Shown here in pieces: positions 1 to 18,000 of a DNA stretch of 64,000 bases. This DNA comes from an uncultured Methanosarcinales archaeon (GTDB lineage Archaea; Nanobdellota; Nanobdellia; Woesearchaeales; GW2011-AR9): positions 908-64,907 of the forward strand of contig CAYIEF010000002.1 of NCBI GenBank assembly GCA_964362365.1. The letters run 5' to 3'. Each line of letters starts with the position of its first letter. The first letter of the stretch is position 1. Position numbers: made by a program.

Positions 1-3000
1 TTGATGTCGCTGATGGTTCTTCCGATATCTCTTTCTTCGTTGTAGGCAGGGATAGAGATGATGATGTAGGAACTTTTAGGTTTGGTAAGCTTATTGGTAA
101 TACTTTTCATCTCTTTACCAGCTAAAGTTGAGCTTAAATATTTTATGAATCCGTAGCTTTATTATCTCTTCTTTCAGAAATCTTTTAAACCATCTTCCAA
201 AAATGCTCAATATGAAGAGGAACTTGAGAGGCAAACCCATAATAGTCTTGATTTTAGCAGCCATCCTTCTCGGCGCAGCTGTCCTCCGGCTGTATGACTT
301 AAGCGAAGAAAGTTTGTGGTTAGATGAATGTTTCACCCTTGATTACAGCTCCCAGCCCATCGATGATCTGGCGGAAACTCTAAAAAAAGATGTACATCCT
401 ATTGGGTATTACCTTCCCCAGCATATTTTGATAGATTACTTTGGTACTGGAGAAATAAGTTTGCGGATCTTATCAGTATTTTTTGGGGTGCTTTCCATAT
501 ATTTAACATATCTGCTGGGAAAAAAGTTCTTTTCCTGGAAAGAAGGGTTGTTGGCTGCTTTTTTTATGGCGATCTCTTACACTTCTATCCTTTATTCTCA
601 GGAAGCGAAGATGTATAGCATGTTTGGAGCATTTTTCCTTCTTTCTCTGATTTCTTTTATTAGATTTTTGGAAAGGCCTTCTTATCTCAATCTATTGTTT
701 TTTTCTTTTTCCATAGCATTGCTGCTGTATACCCATATAATCGGCTTGATCATCCTAGCATGTTTTATCTTATTTTATTTTACCGGTTATCTGTTTAAGT
801 ATAAAAAGACCGATAGAGTTTCACAAACTCCTTCATTCCTGCAAAATATTTTTTTTTCCAGAAGGTTTTTTTTAGCATTGCTGCTGGTTTTTCTATTATA
901 CCTGCCATGGTTCAAAATATTGATGCTTTACCAGCTTCCACGTCTGTATCAATCTCTGGGAGAAAAATTTGTAGAGAAGTTAGGGATCAATCTGCTTCCA
1001 TTTTTTTCTGCAGCAGCAGTAATTCTTGGTTTGCTTTCCTTTGCAGGCTTATATTTTTATCTTAAGAATAAAATTAATCTCGACAAATTCTACTCTGGGA
1101 GCAAACGTCTCTTTTCTTTCTTTAACCATGACAAAATTATCTTTGTATTGCTGTTATTCTTGATACTGTTTGATTTTCTGGCGAGCCGGTACTTTTTTTC
1201 GTCTGTGCACATAATTCGTTTTAGTTTTTTCTTGCTTCCTTTAGGATACATTTTGCTTTCGCGCATTTTGCTGCGGATGAGAAGAAATTATCTTGCCAAC
1301 ATCATTTTTGCTCTCTTTCTCATCAGCACTTCGCTGGAGCTTTACGCATATTACCATCTAGATTCCAAGGAACAATTTCGAGAGGCTGCGGAGTACATCG
1401 AAAACCACGCTTCTGCAGCGGATGTTTTGTTCCTGCACCGCGCAACTATAGCTAAGCTCTGTTTCGATTACTACTATTCAGGCAATGTTGAGGAAGAACG
1501 ATTGATAACTCCGGGCCACGATGACTATCTTCTGACCGAACGAACTTCAGGAAAAAGAGATGCCTATCTGATCTTAAGCCATAATTATCATACCAAAGAT
1601 TATTTTAAACAAAAACTCGATTCTCTCTACGAATTTAAGGAGAAGAAGAAGTTCATAGGAGTGACCATTTACAAATATGAGGTCTCAGAATCATAATCTA
1701 TTTAAATGGAAGGAGGGGAAAAGGTACGTGGTTGTGAGTGGTTAGAATTGGAGTTATAGGTTCTGGAAAATGGGGTGAAAATCATCTCAGGGATTTTTCT
1801 AAAATATCGTCCTGCCACCTGGTAGGCCTCGCTGATGTCGACGAGCGTAAAAAGGAACTGGCAGCAAAGCATGGGGTTATGTTTTTTACTGATTATAAGG
1901 ACATGCTTCCTTATGTGGATGCAGTGACGGTAGTGACGCCAACAACACTTCATTATGCTATGGCTAAAGATTGTCTTCTTCAAGGAAAGCACGTTTTTGT
2001 GGAAAAACCGCTCTGTTTTGATCACGGTCAGGCTCGGGAATTGGTGGATCTGGCAAAAGAAAAGAGATTGATCCTTTCGGTGGGATATGTCTTTCGTTTT
2101 AATCCCTTGATGAGCAGGTTAAAGGAATTGTTGCCGGAAATCGGCGATATACATTATATCTACGGCAGATACATCCATTCTACTGTCCCGCCGCGGAAAG
2201 ATTCCGGAGCGATTTTTAACCTTGCGGTGCACCTTATCGATTTCTTGAATGCTCTTCTTTCACCGGCACCTCAAAAAATCTATGCTCGGAACTCGCATCT
2301 GATCTCCAAACAGAATGAAGATTCTTCTTTTGTCACTATCGATTACGGCAACTTTAGCGCTCATCTCGAAGTCAGCTGCTGCCATCCCTTAAAGAAGAGA
2401 GATATGTGGATCATTGCTTCTAAAGAAAAGCTTTATTTGGATTTTTTAGATCAAGTAATTGAAAGGCATCCTTTAATCGTAGATGAAGATAAAACTGAGA
2501 AGAAAGAGGCGTTCCGTGATCCCCAGGTCGGAAAAAACCAGCCTTTATACGAAGAGCTGAAATATTTTGTCCATCTCTGCAATAAGGTAAATATGGGAGA
2601 AGAGGTTCATTCTAATCTTTCTGCTGAGAATCTTCTTACTACAAAAATGTGTATTTTAGCCATACAATCTGCGCAAGAGAATGAGGTTCATCTCATCGAA
2701 TGAAGATGGAAAAACTATGGAAAAAGTAACAATCGCTTCCACGGCCATGGTCAAGGATTCGTTCATCGGTGAAGGAGCACAGATCTGGGAGTTTGCGAAT
2801 GTCTACGGAGCAAAGATCGGAAAAAATACTAAGATAGGGTCGTATGTAGAAGTGCAAAAGAATACGGTTATTGGGGAGAATGTAGTTGTTTCTTCTCACT
2901 CATTTATTTGCTCTTTAGTTACGATAGAAGATAACGTGTTTATCGGCCACGGGGTTATGACCATCAATGATGTATATCCGCCTTCTAAAAGAAGGACCGG

Positions 3001-15000: not shown

Positions 15001-18000
15001 ATAGTATGATAATGGCGACTTATTCTACAATATCCTATAGTAGCATAAATGTTATAAATATCCTCTTCAAGACAGGTCATATGGTCACAAAGGTAGGCGA
15101 GGCAGTACAAGGCTTTTACAATAAAACTCCTTTTCCAGATTACGATCTGGCTAGATTTAACTGTAAGGAAGATCTTTCTTTAGCTGCTTATTCTTTTGCC
15201 AAAGTGCTGGACAGGAGCATTCCAGCCAATGCTTCCGTTATTGATGTTGGCACCGGTACCGGACAACTTTCCGCATTTCTTTCTTTACGGCGGGAATGCG
15301 TATGGGGCATTGATTTTTCGGATAGTTCTTTAAAAAAAGCGAGAAGCCTCAAAGAAAAATTACAATTAGATTCGTGGAATCTTAAAAAAGTGGATATTCT
15401 TGATCCAGTGCAGATCGAGGCTATCGGAAGGCAGTTTGATTATGTTCTATGCATGGGGGTACTCCATCATACTGGGGATGCCTACAAGGCATTTCAAAAT
15501 ATTATGAAGTTAGTTAAACCAGGCGGCTATGTTGCTATCGGATTGTATAATTCGTACGGCAGAATCCTGCTTAAAAAGCGTATTTTTTTATCCAAAACTA
15601 TTTTTAAAAATAACAATGCGGTAAAAGATAAATATATCCGGATGCAGATAGGTGATGTGGAAGATAAGGAACGAGCTCGCGGCTGGTGGAATGACCAATA
15701 TCTGCATCCCCACGAGACCACGCATACGGTTGGAGAGGTAATCGGTTGGTTTAAAAAAAACAGCATACAATTTTTTCATACCGTGCCATCAACCTCGCTG
15801 TTCTCTGAATCTGCTGTTGACATCAGTGGAGTATGGCATAAAAAAGAAAAATCTCCCTCTTTCATAGTACAACTCTACAAGCAGCTCGGTTGGATCAGGA
15901 GCACTAATCGGGAAGGCGGCTATTGGATAACTTTTGGAAGAAAACTGGAAAAAAATGCGTAAGATCACTATCAGCGAAATTTTCTCCGTACTTCCGGGGG
16001 TTTTAATTATCGTAGCAGGTTTACAATTCATTTCTATTCAGAAAAGTTATAATCAAACCATGGTCATCTTTCTGTTCATATTAAAATATGCTGTGGTAAT
16101 GTTGGGGATTGCGATATTACTCTTTGCCGTTATTTCTATCTTTTCTCCTGCATCATTATTCAAGCATCGCAAAGTAAAAAAGTATCTGCAAGATATCGCT
16201 GTACTATTGGTCGCTACTTTTTTGTGCGCCGTTATTTTTGAGATGATCTTACAAGTCACTTTTCCAGAAAGCTGCAAGCAGGATGATCCGATCTATGATC
16301 ATTCATATACGCCTAACTGCCATTCACGCTTTACTACCTTTGAATGGGATACTGAGGTGAAAATTAATGCTGAAGGTTTTCGTGACGATGAAATTTTGCC
16401 GAAAGAGCAGTTCGATCTCAGAATTTTGATGTTAGGAGACAGCATGACTTGGGGTTACGGGGTGGAGAAAGAAGAAACTTTCAGCGAAGTATTGCAACAA
16501 AAAATGAAAGCAAAGGGAGTCAAGGCCGATGTTATCAACGCTGGGGCAACTTCCTACTCTCCTACTTTAGAATACCTTTTATTGAAAAATAAAGGTTTAT
16601 CCTATGAACCAGAGGTGGTCATTTTAAATTTGGATATGAGCGACATCCAAGATGATTACTTTCGGGAGAAAGCTGCGGAGTTTGACCAGGAAGGAAATAT
16701 AATACGAGTTTCTGGAATTAAAGAACAAACTACGCTATTATATAAAATCAGGAATAAAATGAAGACAAACCGTTTTATAGCTGATAAGATCAGTTTGATC
16801 GATTCAAGATTTTCTACACAGATAAAAGAAGAGACGCAAAACACTATCCCGCAAGGAGATCCAAAAACTGACCGGTATGCTATTCTCAGGGATATGCCGG
16901 TGCAGGATGAAGAAGAAAATTGGAACAGAACATTCCATTACATCTCCCTCATCAATGAATTATGTAAAGAGAATGATATCACTTTCATTTTAACCCTCTA
17001 TCCTTATGGCGTCCAAGTTTCTCCCGACGAATGGAGCTTGGGAAGGCACTTGTTTGGATTTAGGGAAGGTGCAGTGCAAAGCGATGCTCCGCAGCAGAAA
17101 GTCAAGAAATATGCTGAAGAGAATGGCATTATCTATGTCGAGATGCTGGAGCAGTTTCAAGAATCAGAAACGTTTCCGTTATATTTTCCTTACGATGGGC
17201 ATATCAACCGAGAGGGACATAAGCTGGCTGCAAATGTTCTGTTTTCTTCATTGGTGGAAGAAGGTATCGTTGAGCTTCCTGCTCAGGCAGAATATCCGCC
17301 TAATCCTTTTCCGATTAAATAAAAATTATAGTAGGAGCTAATTTCTTTTCGAATAGCCCCATTTTCCACAATCTTTAAAAATAACTTTACTTTCCATTAA
17401 GATATGGATGAAAAATCTGGAAACAAAAGTCTCCTCGCCGAGTCTTGGGACTTTCTAAAAGAAAGGAAAGCATGGTGGCTTACACCAATTATAATTATGC
17501 TTGTTTTCGTCGGCGTTTTGATAATCTTTGGACAAAGCAGCGCTATCTCGCCGTTTATTTATGCTCTTTTCTAGTTATTTATCATTTATACCCATTTGTT
17601 TCTAAAAATTTATAAAGGAGACTGTTAGAGACACGATTATGGGAAAACATGCTTCATCTCTTGAAAAGATAGGGATAAAAGTAGGATTTTTTATAAGTTA
17701 TATTTTATCTTCTTTGCTCTTATTTTACATCCTCACCAGCTTAGGGAAGATTTCGTACACTACTACTGCTGTGTTGAAAGTATTTGCAGCGGTCTTGCTT
17801 ATCGCCATTATTGGAGGTTTGATTCAGAAGTTTGTATTATGACTGCGGCAAAACGATTTTTAAAATCGGTAGGGAAGGGCATGAAACAGTTCGGAGAGAA
17901 GCTCACTACTGTTGTAAATACTGTTCTCTTGCTTCTGGTGTACATAGTTGGAGTAGGTCTCACCTCCATCATTGCCCGCATTTTCAGAAAACATTTTCTG

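Follow-up and report, generated by a model that had tools for sequence, protein, structure and literature searches.

The window, the whole 64,000-nucleotide stretch analysed here, comes from a tiny groundwater DPANN archaeon of the Woesearchaeota type and carries an island of glycan genes that includes an operon at 203-17322, in which every gene lies on the plus strand and neighbouring genes either overlap or are separated by no more than 87 nt (Table 1); the stop of the AsnB gene, for example, overlaps the start of the gene for GT-C B by 4 nt. The SGNH protein encoded at the end of the operon shows hydrophobic segments at its N-terminus in translation, and its gene is also placed after D in three related loci (L004, L006, and L007). 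The window further encodes three GT4 genes and a DltB-like MBOAT (152 bits), and a carbamoyltransferase is also named among the tailoring enzymes of the island.

Table 1. Genes of the window considered in this analysis.
Feature	Position	Strand	Support
Upstream GT2, first 36 codons of 309 aa	1-110 (source contig L001 844-1773)	-	Pfam Glycos_transf_2, 93 bits
GT-C protein A, PMT_2 family, 497 aa	203-1696	+	Pfam PMT_2, 34.3 bits (cutoff 26.1)
GFO/IDH/MocA oxidoreductase, nucleotide-sugar 3-dehydrogenase-like	1738-2703	+	Pfam
Hexapeptide-repeat N-acetyltransferase/DegT-type sugar aminotransferase fusion	2681-4342	+	Pfam Hexapep + DegT_DnrJ_EryC1, 397 bits
SDR nucleotide-sugar epimerase/dehydratase	4355-5350	+	Pfam Epimerase, 178 bits
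GT2, ArnC/GtrB type, 321 aa	5438-6403	+	Pfam GT2, 89 bits
AsnB-type glutamine amidotransferase	6431-8341	+	Pfam Asn_synthase, 272 bits
GT-C protein B, unannotated STT3-like family, 652 aa	8338-10296	+	
Small single-pass membrane protein, conserved 6-cysteine ectodomain, 99 aa	10297-10596	+	Gene call in source record
GT-C protein C, PMT_2 family, 593 aa	10608-12389	+	Pfam PMT_2, 57.1 bits, and PMT, 27.7 bits, both over cutoff
SAM-dependent methyltransferase between C and D	12413-13138	+	Pfam Methyltransf_11, 67.5 bits
GT-C protein D, large unannotated family, 608 aa	13178-15004	+	
SAM-dependent methyltransferase overlapping end of D	14997-15962	+	Pfam Methyltransf_31, 68.9 bits
Membrane-anchored SGNH/GDSL hydrolase or acyltransferase, closing the operon	15934-17322	+	Pfam Lipase_GDSL_2, 42.9 bits
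SDR reductase/epimerase, GDP-6-deoxyhexose module	22388-23314	-	Pfam
GDP-mannose 4,6-dehydratase (GMD)	23280-24302	-	Pfam
GT2, GDP-6-deoxyhexose module	24345-25106	-	Pfam Glycos_transf_2
C-methyltransferase, GDP-6-deoxyhexose module	25084-26355	-	Pfam
Wzx-like MOP-family flippase candidate	28015-29499	+	Pfam Polysacc_synt, 98 bits
TagF-like CDP-glycerol glycerophosphotransferase	48537-50093		
CDP-alcohol phosphatidyltransferase	52757		
DUF2304 small membrane protein	61573-61941	-	74.4 bits
GT2, 222 aa, no TM segment	61923-62591	-	Pfam Glycos_transf_2

The first-pass annotation had proposed at least four large polytopic GT-C transferases starting at 203, 8338, 10608, and 13178, each with an acidic motif in its first loop. 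Open reading frames of 497-652 aa are present at these positions, each product contains 9-12 hydrophobic segments, and all four proteins can be assigned to the GT-C class, A and C by passing Pfam PMT_2 and B and D through AF2 models searched with Foldseek. The acidic motifs are also present and conserved, with the exception that the motif of B follows the fourth predicted helix and so lies outside the literal first loop. Residues E36, W39, D41, and E42 of the SLWLDE motif of A and D33 and E34 of the VPDE motif of C are invariant in 30/30 homologs each, as are E133, D136, W138, and H140 of the B motif YLEDEDPWGH in 43/43. In D, D59/E60, a motif not named at first pass, are at least 90% conserved. 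B has three additional N-terminal helices, followed by a lysine/arginine-rich loop that is presumably cytoplasmic.

The two proteins placed by structure belong to unannotated families. The D family, which has no match in Pfam or NCBIfam, occurs in DPANN archaea and Patescibacteria, with 4037 clusters of relatives at E<=1e-3. The AF2 model of D (pLDDT 89.6, pTM 0.90) matches STT3 (1e-7), PglB, DPY19, AftA (TM 0.52), and ArnT, and its significant Foldseek matches are essentially all GT-C enzymes. The same holds for the confident model of B, whose family is conserved across Woesearchaeota-type genomes; its nearest structural relatives are STT3, AglB, and PglB, with ArnT less close and ALG12, ALG9, and ALG3 also among the matches. 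B is STT3-like in both its membrane domain and its C-terminal domain. The gene following B encodes a 6-cysteine protein for which a Pfam search gave no match; it adjoins B in 43 of 46 close-clade loci, on either strand (24/24), and in 0 of 21 deep-clade loci, and its product is a candidate subunit or acceptor of B.

The four GT2 genes reported at first pass as Dpm1-like are real, and their solved relatives bear out that description: ArnC, archaeal Dol-P-Man synthase, and GtrB are the sole significant full-domain solved relatives of all four, with two also matching other GT2s (chondroitin synthase) weakly and in part. None reaches an NCBIfam equivalog cutoff, and thus no named activity can be assigned to any of them. 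The upstream GT2, transcribed divergently from A, is of the Dol-P-sugar synthase type, and over its full length its best solved relatives are the Pyrococcus furiosus Dol-P-Man synthase (7e-19) and GtrB (2e-18). The GT2 at 5438 aligns full length with ArnC structures (1e-25; residues 15-309 versus 9-295), and its top NCBIfam matches (PgfS, ArnC, and AglJ) are all under cutoff; it is predicted to be a dolichyl-phosphate amino-sugar synthase. Both of these proteins possess an ArnC/GtrB-type C-terminal TM hairpin, formed in the latter by two helices at 253-303. The GT2 at 24345 is closest to the P. furiosus enzyme (3e-25), and that at 61923 to ArnC (6e-13) and Dol-P-Man synthase (7e-9), its best NCBIfam match being PpgS (110.9 bits versus a cutoff of 370). 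The gene at 61923 is indeed paired with a DUF2304 membrane partner, as had been proposed, with the partner gene overlapping its stop end by 19 nt. The expected Wzx flippase gene was also found, and a Wzx homolog flanks the B homolog (up to 10 kb on each side) in 31 of 80 locus entries.

Genes for sugar synthesis accompany the transferases. The oxidoreductase at 1738 has archaeal UDP-GlcNAc 3-dehydrogenase as its top NCBIfam match (185 bits versus a cutoff of 450), the fusion protein at 2681 is PseC/ArnB-like with scores under cutoffs, and the SDR protein at 4355 is dTDP-glucose 4,6-dehydratase-like (181 bits versus 365). The minus-strand module at 22388-26355 is predicted to supply the donor for C: a GMD or C-methyltransferase lies within 5 kb of C-type genes in 20 of 29 loci, compared with just 3 of 32 for A-type genes, and in one locus (L004) orthologs of all four module genes (C-methyltransferase, GT2 24345, GMD, and reductase) lie in one operon together with a C-like PMT_2 gene.

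Comparison with 78 related loci carrying B homologs supports a functional coupling of GT-C and GT2 genes. The gene order is kept in other MAGs (L006 and L007) at 70-77% protein identity, and a second GT-C lies within 4 kb of the B homolog in 51/78 loci, which together indicate co-occurrence beyond chance. In 42 of 57 loci a GT2 lies upstream of B at a distance of no more than 4 kb, and in 11 of the 57 it is directly adjacent (<600 bp); the order GT2-AsnB-B recurs in L005-L010, L017, L027, and L078, while in the deep clade the GT2 is typically divergent from B. GT2 density near B is 1.18 versus 0.48 per 10 kb, an enrichment of only 2.4-fold, GT2 genes being common throughout such glycan islands. 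Natural fusions of D relatives to GT2 (6/6 tested), GtrA_DPMS_TM (2), and GT4 (1) were also found, and the fused GT2 domains align over ~200 aa with the GT2s of the window (E 1e-19 to 1e-29). Conserved neighbourhoods and these fusions thus provide an independent tie to polyprenyl-phosphate-sugar metabolism, although no GT2 was found within 5 kb of D in the five loci examined.

We consider 203-17322 to be a probable cell-surface glycosylation operon working like the three-component GT2/flippase/GT-C systems that occur across life's three domains. The polyprenyl-phosphate-sugar-dependent extracytoplasmic glycosylation proposed at first pass gains support from the GT2 relatives, the conserved neighbourhoods, and the GT2 and GtrA fusions. 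In this scheme, for which we infer the donor lipid, sugars, topology, and acceptor, the enzymes at 1738-5350 and 6431 would build an N-acetylated amino sugar as a nucleotide sugar in the cytoplasm, where the module at 22388-26355 would build a C-methylated GDP-6-deoxyhexose. The four GT2s would charge dolichyl phosphate with single sugars on the membrane's inner face, and the charged lipids would be flipped, with the Wzx-like protein, and A if it is Agl23-like, as candidates. Three or four of the GT-Cs would then use the flipped lipids outside the membrane to glycosylate a surface acceptor, the acidic motif of each lying in an extracytoplasmic loop after the first helix of the core, and the methyltransferases, SGNH enzyme, MBOAT, and carbamoyltransferase may decorate the product. 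The upstream GT2 would serve A, that at 5438 B, and that at 24345 C. Counting against this scheme, oligosaccharide units are the usual cargo of Wzx proteins, a search of the window yielded neither a GtrA-like nor an LPG_synthase_TM flippase, and STT3, AglB, and PglB, the nearest structural relatives of B, transfer oligosaccharides rather than monosaccharides. Decoration of the surface from outside the membrane is a well-known strategy, here apparently using in part families unnamed in databases.

The closest archaeal parallels are found in haloarchaea. In Haloferax volcanii, a GT2 (AglD) charges dolichyl phosphate with hexose on the cytoplasmic face, the Wzx-like AglR is involved in flipping, and on the outside of the cell AglS, a PMT_2-type GT-C, attaches the hexose to a glycan carried by protein (PMC3871713). 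In Haloarcula hispanica Agl22/Agl23, hexose-P-Dol serves as the extracellular donor, and Agl23, a putative hexose-P-Dol flippase, translocates lipid-linked glycan in liposomes when purified (PMC11182771). The window possesses the same three component classes as these systems; unlike Haloferax, with its one external step, the island contains four GT2s and four GT-Cs, B and D are not PMT_2 members, and all proteins of the window score under the equivalog cutoffs for AglJ, the halobacterial Dol-P-hexose transferase, and Agl23. The segment 1738-10296 also shares its modular logic with the Arn pathway of Gram-negative bacteria (ArnA/ArnB/ArnC/ArnT): SDR, DegT aminotransferase, N-acyltransferase, ArnC-like GT2, and GT-C. 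It differs in that the N-acyl step falls to a hexapeptide acetyltransferase, joined to the aminotransferase in one protein, in place of a formyltransferase, in the addition of a 3-dehydrogenase-like GFO/MocA enzyme and AsnB, and in a GT-C structurally nearer STT3 than ArnT; all NCBIfam scores are under the Arn cutoffs, and in this host, where lipid A is absent, the carrier would be dolichol. In bacterial GtrA/GtrB/GtrC-type systems, which act in O-antigen and teichoic-acid glycosylation (e.g., CsbB-GtcA-YfhO), a GtrB-like GT2 works with a polytopic extracytoplasmic transferase. The D-family fusions to GtrA_DPMS_TM and GT2 provide a direct domain-level link to such systems, in spite of the lack of a detected GtrA-family gene in the window.

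Several other readings must be weighed against this scheme. One could take A, B, C, and D for transporters or permeases merely located in a sugar gene cluster, given the failure to assign B and D to a family by sequence alone, but the fold searches of these two and the PMT_2 matches of A and C rule this out, leaving it a negligible chance. It is unlikely that B, as a paralog of STT3/AglB, is a second, non-canonical OST-like enzyme with protein as its direct substrate, possibly the 6-cysteine neighbour or a non-N-X-S/T site, with the GT2 acting as an AglJ-type initiator that starts a Dol-P-linked glycan instead of making a monosaccharide donor. The AglJ match of the GT2s and the conserved 6-cysteine partner would fit such a role, as would a conserved K-Y-x-x-N-T-x-x-W-P-T-S-G-(S/A)-F motif just past the last TM helix of B, which would sit roughly at the position of the OST WWDxG. 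B itself lacks WWDxG, though, and differs from the GT66 enzymes (STT3/AglB/PglB) in its extra helices and its tight linkage to monosaccharide-type GT2s; no member of the B alignment matches Pfam STT3 (E<=0.1), while 2/43 match PMT_2. Also, a canonical AglB with WWDFG lies beside the B homologs of two related genomes (L070 and L074), indicating that an OST is already supplied there.

Protein A may be a transferase or, alternatively, a Dol-P-hexose flippase resembling Agl23. We regard it as improbable that A, and possibly other PMT_2-like members, flip the Dol-P-hexose made by the adjacent GT2, even with the H. hispanica precedent (PMC11182771). The sole NCBIfam match of A is TIGR03663 ("flippase activity-associated protein Agl23"; E 4.5e-10, residues 17-230), a GT2 lies within 5 kb of A-type genes in 25/32 loci, and the window has no other dedicated monosaccharide-lipid flippase; yet the TIGR03663 score of 39 bits is far under the cutoff of 126, the invariant E..W.DE motif is typical of catalytic GT-C loops, and an LPG_synthase_TM flippase-like gene is already close by in 12 of 32 A-type loci. 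Somewhat more plausible, if still doubtful, is a non-protein acceptor for the GT-Cs, such as a teichoic-acid-like or capsular polymer or, in the manner of ArnT, membrane lipid head groups, in place of an S-layer protein or another glycoprotein. The targets of the known bacterial GT2/GtrA/GT-C systems are mostly polysaccharides and teichoic acids, the window encodes the TagF-like, CDP-alcohol phosphatidyltransferase, and MBOAT proteins, and the structural matches include ArnT, AftA, and Emb, whose acceptors are lipids or polysaccharides. Against this, the characterised archaeal AglS and Agl22/23 act on protein-linked glycans, and the closest resemblance of B is to STT3, a protein modifier.

Under the preferred reading of a GT2/flippase/GT-C glycosylation operon, two further systems are instructive. 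In the eukaryotic ALG pathway, serial GT-Cs outside the cytoplasm use Dol-P-sugars made by GT2s (Dpm1/Alg5) on a flipped glycan. The window shows no sign of a Dol-PP-oligosaccharide and its GT-Cs have no sequence-level relationship to the ALG families; that they work in series on a single glycan is no more than a possibility. The cytoplasmic GT4-family steps and MOP-like flippase that precede in ALG do have counterparts in the GT4s and Wzx-like gene of the window. In the arabinogalactan GalN system of mycobacteria and corynebacteria (PpgS-Rv3632-Rv3779), a GT-C uses a lipid-linked sugar outside the membrane (PMC9671496). The window pair at 61573-62591 lies 46 kb away from the GT-C operon, in an archaeal host without arabinogalactan, but resembles PpgS/Rv3632 in combining a short, soluble GT2 with a small DUF2304 membrane partner.

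The four large ORFs proposed in the first-pass annotation as GT-C membrane transferases (proteins A, B, C, and D) are present in the window and strongly hydrophobic, with nine to 12 candidate TM segments in each. Proteins A and C could be placed by sequence, as both score above the gathering threshold of Pfam PMT_2 (PF13231; 34.3 and 57.1 bits, respectively, against 26.1), and C also exceeds the Pfam PMT cutoff. Proteins B and D have no Pfam match at E ≤ 0.01, and nothing was matched when they and their family profiles were compared with Pfam, NCBIfam, and PDB sequences; at E ≤ 0.1, PMT_2 was detected in two of 43 B-family members and in none of 31 D-family members. 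Searches of all PDB chains with the sequences of A–D and the B and D family profiles produced no meaningful match, and fold comparison alone succeeded. AlphaFold (AF2) models of B (pLDDT 86.6, pTM 0.90) and D (pLDDT 89.6, pTM 0.90), built from homolog alignments, have at least 12 long helices and a mixed alpha/beta C-terminal domain, and their significant Foldseek matches in the PDB are essentially all solved GT-C structures, namely STT3, AglB, PglB, DPY19, AftA, ArnT, ALG12/3, and Emb. Transporter matches to these models start at E > 0.09, with a probability of at most 0.15 and TM-scores of about 0.1, and the fold searches rule out transporters as an identity for B and D, as PMT_2 does for A and C. 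Thus, the GT-C similarity on which the proposal depended is found in all four proteins, through PMT_2 for A and C and through Foldseek for B and D. Each is also predicted to possess the eight or more TM helices and the extracytoplasmic C-terminal or loop domain expected of GT-C enzymes. Profile comparisons in hhalign gave no significant match of the B or D family to the sequence of protein C, and a weak match between the B and D families (85% probability, ~116 columns) that is suggestive only.

The acidic motifs quoted for these proteins exist, and within each family few positions are better conserved. E36, W39, D41, and E42 are kept in 30/30 homologs of A, D33 and E34 in 30/30 homologs of C, E133, D136, W138, and H140 in all 43 B sequences, and D59/E60 in at least 90% of 31 D sequences. 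A lysine/arginine-rich segment precedes the helix before the motif in A–D, which by the positive-inside rule would place the motif outside the membrane, so that the core's first extracytoplasmic loop would hold the conserved acidic residue(s), as in other GT-C proteins. The description of these as first-loop motifs holds for the presumed GT-C core but not for B as a whole, where the motif comes after the fourth helix of the model.

Both the TM domain and the C-terminal globular domain of B have the fold of the STT3/AglB/PglB (GT66) oligosaccharyltransferases. Pfam STT3 (PF02516) matched neither B nor any of the 43 family members, the motif WW[DE]xG was not found anywhere in the window, and B has, in place of WWDxG, the conserved sequence N-T-x-x-W-P-T-S-G-(S/A)-F. 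Near B homologs in two related loci, L070 and L074, there are canonical AglB genes (WWDFG motif; Pfam STT3 118 and 154 bits), and the Woesearchaeota-type AglB from L074 matched no window ORF at E ≤ 10 in phmmer. The absence of an STT3 match and of WWDxG, together with canonical AglB beside B homologs, rules out B as the AglB of the host. The L070 gene (3525-7100, minus strand) is a 1,192-aa ORF with a C-terminal FKBP-type peptidyl-prolyl isomerase domain, and would be an oligosaccharyltransferase-foldase fusion. One MAG, CAYJQD01, contains three B paralogs (L008, L011, and L013) with 71%, 54%, and 55% identity to the B of the window.

Directly after B lies the gene of a small protein, the 6-Cys protein, with the motif GY..C...KC...G...C.K.RE..NCC.GAGG...C.F containing six conserved cysteines. 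A word-index search gave only seven homologous proteins, and the counts here come from a locus-based HMM: the gene adjoins B in 43 of 46 close-clade loci, on the same or the opposite strand equally often, and was found in 0/21 loci of the deep B clade. This points to the 6-Cys protein as a dedicated partner or substrate of B. A bolder joint reading, which we consider unlikely as a whole, is that the two form an undescribed STT3-like complex, conserved across Woesearchaeota-type archaea alongside canonical AglB, in which B, with its TM core and AglB-like C-terminal domain, retains the architecture of an oligosaccharyltransferase and is fed by a dedicated Dpm1-like GT2. The sequon-reading WWDxG would be replaced by W-P-T-S-G and B would therefore recognize a different acceptor, and the four GT-Cs would work one after another outside the cell, an archaeal equivalent of the ER-lumenal ALG pathway. 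If true, an STT3-like B with a new acceptor specificity would bear on the diversification of oligosaccharyltransferases.

The D family is large: a search of 1.84 billion representatives with its profile gave 4,037 clusters, of which 1,526 reach E ≤ 1e-30. It spans DPANN archaea and Patescibacteria with no fewer than 4,000 sequence clusters, and its named members are from Aenigmarchaeota and Patescibacteria. Longer members are natural fusions: an N-terminal GT2 domain is present in six of six examined, an N-terminal GtrA_DPMS_TM domain in two, and a GT4 domain in one. The fused GT2 domains align with the Dpm1-like GT2s of the window over ~200 residues (E 1e-19 to 1e-29), and these fusions are the strongest independent link between the GT-C proteins and the GT2s. 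The GT2 and GtrA fusions offer a usable functional annotation for the D family. Together with GT2 neighborhoods, they would indirectly indicate that the GT-C enzymes use a polyprenyl-phosphate-linked sugar donor. Two D-family paralogs occur within single MAGs (P0125/P0143 and P0128/P0140). The occurrence of a common D-type family in DPANN archaea and Patescibacteria (CPR bacteria; relatives P0175, P0308, and P0155) hints that these two ultra-small lineages have exchanged surface-glycosylation genes.

The assignment of four GT2s as Dpm1-like is borne out, as their significant full-domain solved relatives are ArnC, GtrB, and the dolichol-phosphate mannose synthase of Pyrococcus furiosus; for two of the four, chondroitin synthase and another GT2 are also matched, weakly and in part. 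Their top NCBIfam matches are PgfS, ArnC, AglJ, Dol-P-hexose transferase, and PpgS, and none comes near the named-equivalog cutoff of ArnC (95 vs 529), AglJ (98 vs 325), PpgS (111 vs 370), or Dol-P-hexose transferase. By homology they are predicted enzymes of the Dpm1/DPMS/GtrB/ArnC type, yet orthologs of no named enzyme. The membrane anchors expected of polyprenyl-phosphate synthases were found in three. GT2 5438 matches ArnC end to end, TM hairpin included, and the upstream GT2, read whole from the source contig, has the same C-terminal TM hairpin. GT2 61923, whose best NCBIfam match is PpgS, overlaps by 19 nt the gene of the DUF2304-like membrane partner noted previously (74.4 bits against a cutoff of 25.5). 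An overlapping GT2 and DUF2304 arrangement is known from mycobacterial PpgS/Rv3632 (PMC9671496), and the window shares with that pair the adjacency of the two genes. GT2 24345 has neither a C-terminal TM hairpin nor a small membrane partner, and its best solved match, DPMS (3e-25), covers the catalytic and interface part only.

A B-profile scan of one genome per species recovered 78 related loci, all from this archaeal group and all containing the B family, and their ORFs were labeled by the proteins of the window for neighborhood counts. Of the 57 loci with enough flank, 42 have a GT2 in the 4 kb upstream of B and 11 have one directly adjacent (within 600 bp); in the deep B clade, at 35-40% identity, the GT2 is typically divergent from B. 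GT2 density near B is 1.18 vs 0.48 per 10 kb, an enrichment that is modest because these loci are glycan islands throughout. B comes after an A-type PMT_2 gene in 38 loci and has a flanking C-type gene in 30. Within 5 kb, A-type genes have a GT2 in 25 of 32 loci and the flippase-like LPG_synthase_TM in 12 of 32, and a GMD or sugar C-methyltransferase accompanies 20 of 29 C-type genes and 3 of 32 A-type genes. Locus L004 has a co-directional operon of a C-like GT-C with orthologs of the window C-methyltransferase (70% identity), GT2 24345 (66%), GMD (78%), and reductase (56%).

The Wzx flippase gene reported for the window was recovered as a candidate flippase gene, with 98.2 bits to Pfam Polysacc_synt against a cutoff of 28.2. 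Unlike a Gtr-type three-component system, the window has no detectable GtrA-like gene (phmmer with two GtrA domains, ORFs ≥60 aa, E ≤ 10, a search of limited sensitivity), and GtrA is found elsewhere fused to D-family relatives. No LPG_synthase_TM flippase was found in the window by phmmer; a single match was discounted as an antisense ORF within an epimerase gene. A GT2 and LPG_synthase_TM (MprF-flippase-like) pair is divergent from the A-B pair in many relatives (L002, L003, L015, L016, L018, L030, L042, L046, L052, L055, and L065). This pair is a candidate Dol-P-sugar flippase module of the relatives that is absent from the window.

As far as the identity and logic of the components go, the original interpretation, an extracytoplasmic glycosylation system dependent on polyprenyl-phosphate sugars, is supported. 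Nucleotide sugars would be tailored in the cytoplasm by two modules, one consisting of a 3-dehydrogenase-like enzyme, an acetyltransferase-aminotransferase fusion, an SDR, and an AsnB amidotransferase, and the other of GMD, reductase, and C-methyltransferase. The tailoring enzymes all fall under NCBIfam equivalog cutoffs, except WbuX and a generic Asn synthase. The Dpm1-like GT2s would then put single sugars on dolichyl phosphate, the lipid-linked sugars would be flipped, and the GT-C enzymes would transfer the sugars outside the membrane; methyltransferases, a membrane-anchored SGNH enzyme, the DltB-like MBOAT with its partner, and a carbamoyltransferase may modify the product. The pairs proposed from synteny are upstream GT2/A, 5438/B, and 24345/C.

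Other roles can be proposed for some of these components. Protein A might be an Agl23-type Dol-P-hexose flippase, since TIGR03663 (Agl23) is its only NCBIfam match, but this match spans residues 17-230 at 39.1 bits, far below the cutoff of 126. Protein B could be a non-canonical oligosaccharyltransferase-like enzyme and the GT2 an AglJ-type initiator. The acceptors may also be non-protein, as the TagF-like, CDP-alcohol phosphatidyltransferase, and DltB-like genes of the window would favor. Under the glycosylation scheme preferred here, the kind of system is one already known in all three domains, Archaea included. Archaeal precedents are Haloferax AglD/AglR/AglS (PMC3871713) and Haloarcula Agl22/Agl23 (PMC11182771). 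What is new is the fold-level annotation and likely role of two large GT-C families, B and D, that are blank in current databases, the Rosetta-stone fusions, and the B/6-Cys pair; literature searches on Woesearchaeota glycosylation or oligosaccharyltransferases found no paper on these genes.

The sequence derives from a 93,303-bp contig of a Hainich groundwater 0.1-µm-filtrate metagenome (ENA ERZ1292643), and GC is ~0.39 throughout the window. Named homologs of its proteins are labeled Nanoarchaeota, Woesearchaeota, or Nanoarchaeia archaeon, which identifies the host as a Woesearchaeota-type DPANN archaeon. The title "uncultured Methanosarcinales archaeon" is given to about half of the related MAG records, many TPA entries among them, and is probably a labeling artifact of the submissions, since the B genes and gene order in these records agree with those in records that bear the name Woesearchaeota or Nanoarchaeota. 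DPANN archaea, Woesearchaeota among them, are tiny, mostly uncultured, and presumed to live attached to other cells, so that the surface is probably central to their biology; we know of no experimental work on DPANN surface glycosylation. Surface glycan chemistry takes a large share of this one contig, with much of it predicted to occur outside the membrane. Almost every gene of the 64-kb window relates to glycan synthesis, and the genes of 203-17322 all run in one direction with overlaps or gaps of at most 87 nt, probably as a single transcript.

Glycan-related features of the window, with coordinates and strand
Feature	Coordinates	Strand	Description
Upstream GT2	1-110	-	N-terminus; rest outside the window
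Protein A	203-1696	+	GT-C
GT2 5438	5438-6403	+	Dpm1-like
Protein B	8338-10296	+	GT-C
6-Cys protein	10297-10596	+	99 aa, single-pass, 6-cysteine ectodomain, no Pfam family
Protein C	10608-12389	+	GT-C
Protein D	13178-15004	+	GT-C
DUF5989 mini-protein (78.6 bits), two further tiny TM ORFs, then carbamoyltransferase	17404-19860	+	
DltB-like MBOAT and overlapping partner	19898-22340	-	partner single-pass, 346 aa
GDP-6-deoxyhexose module	22388-26355	-	C-methyltransferase, GT2 24345, GMD, SDR reductase
GT2 24345	24345-25106	-	Dpm1-like
Wzx-like gene	28015-29499	+	candidate flippase
NTP_transf_5-like/P-loop paralogs	29517-30857; 59132-60430	+	
Nonulosonic-acid and acetamidino-sugar block	38594-47479	+	
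HisF-HisH fusion	38594	+	nonulosonic-acid/acetamidino-sugar block
WbuX N-acetyl-sugar amidotransferase	40091	+	363 bits, above cutoff
Aminotransferase; 2-hydroxyacid dehydrogenase	within 38594-47479	+	nonulosonic-acid block
CMP-transferase-NeuB fusion	43549	+	nonulosonic-acid block
NeuC-like 2-epimerase	45339	+	nonulosonic-acid block
ATP-grasp enzyme	46502	+	nonulosonic-acid block
TagF-like CDP-glycerol glycerophosphotransferase domain protein	48537-50093	-	
CDP-alcohol phosphatidyltransferase and neighboring inositol-monophosphatase-family gene	52757-54339	+	
Pyruvate kinase, then ATP sulfurylase, APS kinase	54715-58108	+	pyruvate kinase with N-terminal winged-helix domain
DUF2304-like protein	61573-61941	-	partner of GT2 61923
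GT2 61923	61923-62591	-	Dpm1-like

Several further genes of the island touch on its chemistry. The TagF-like and CDP-alcohol genes hint that this DPANN archaeon may make a teichoic-acid-like polymer or lipids with unusual head groups, and PAPS supply within a glycan island suggests that the surface glycans are sulfated. The MBOAT (152 bits to TIGR04091, below cutoff) and its partner, which has a weak DUF1574 link in the source record, are probably an extracytoplasmic O-acylation pair. The two paralogs with NTP_transf_5-like and thymidylate-kinase-like P-loop domains each have a GT4 gene as neighbor, and in related loci homologs are repeatedly found next to Wzx. The arrangement of DUF5989, tiny TM ORFs, and carbamoyltransferase recurs in L004.
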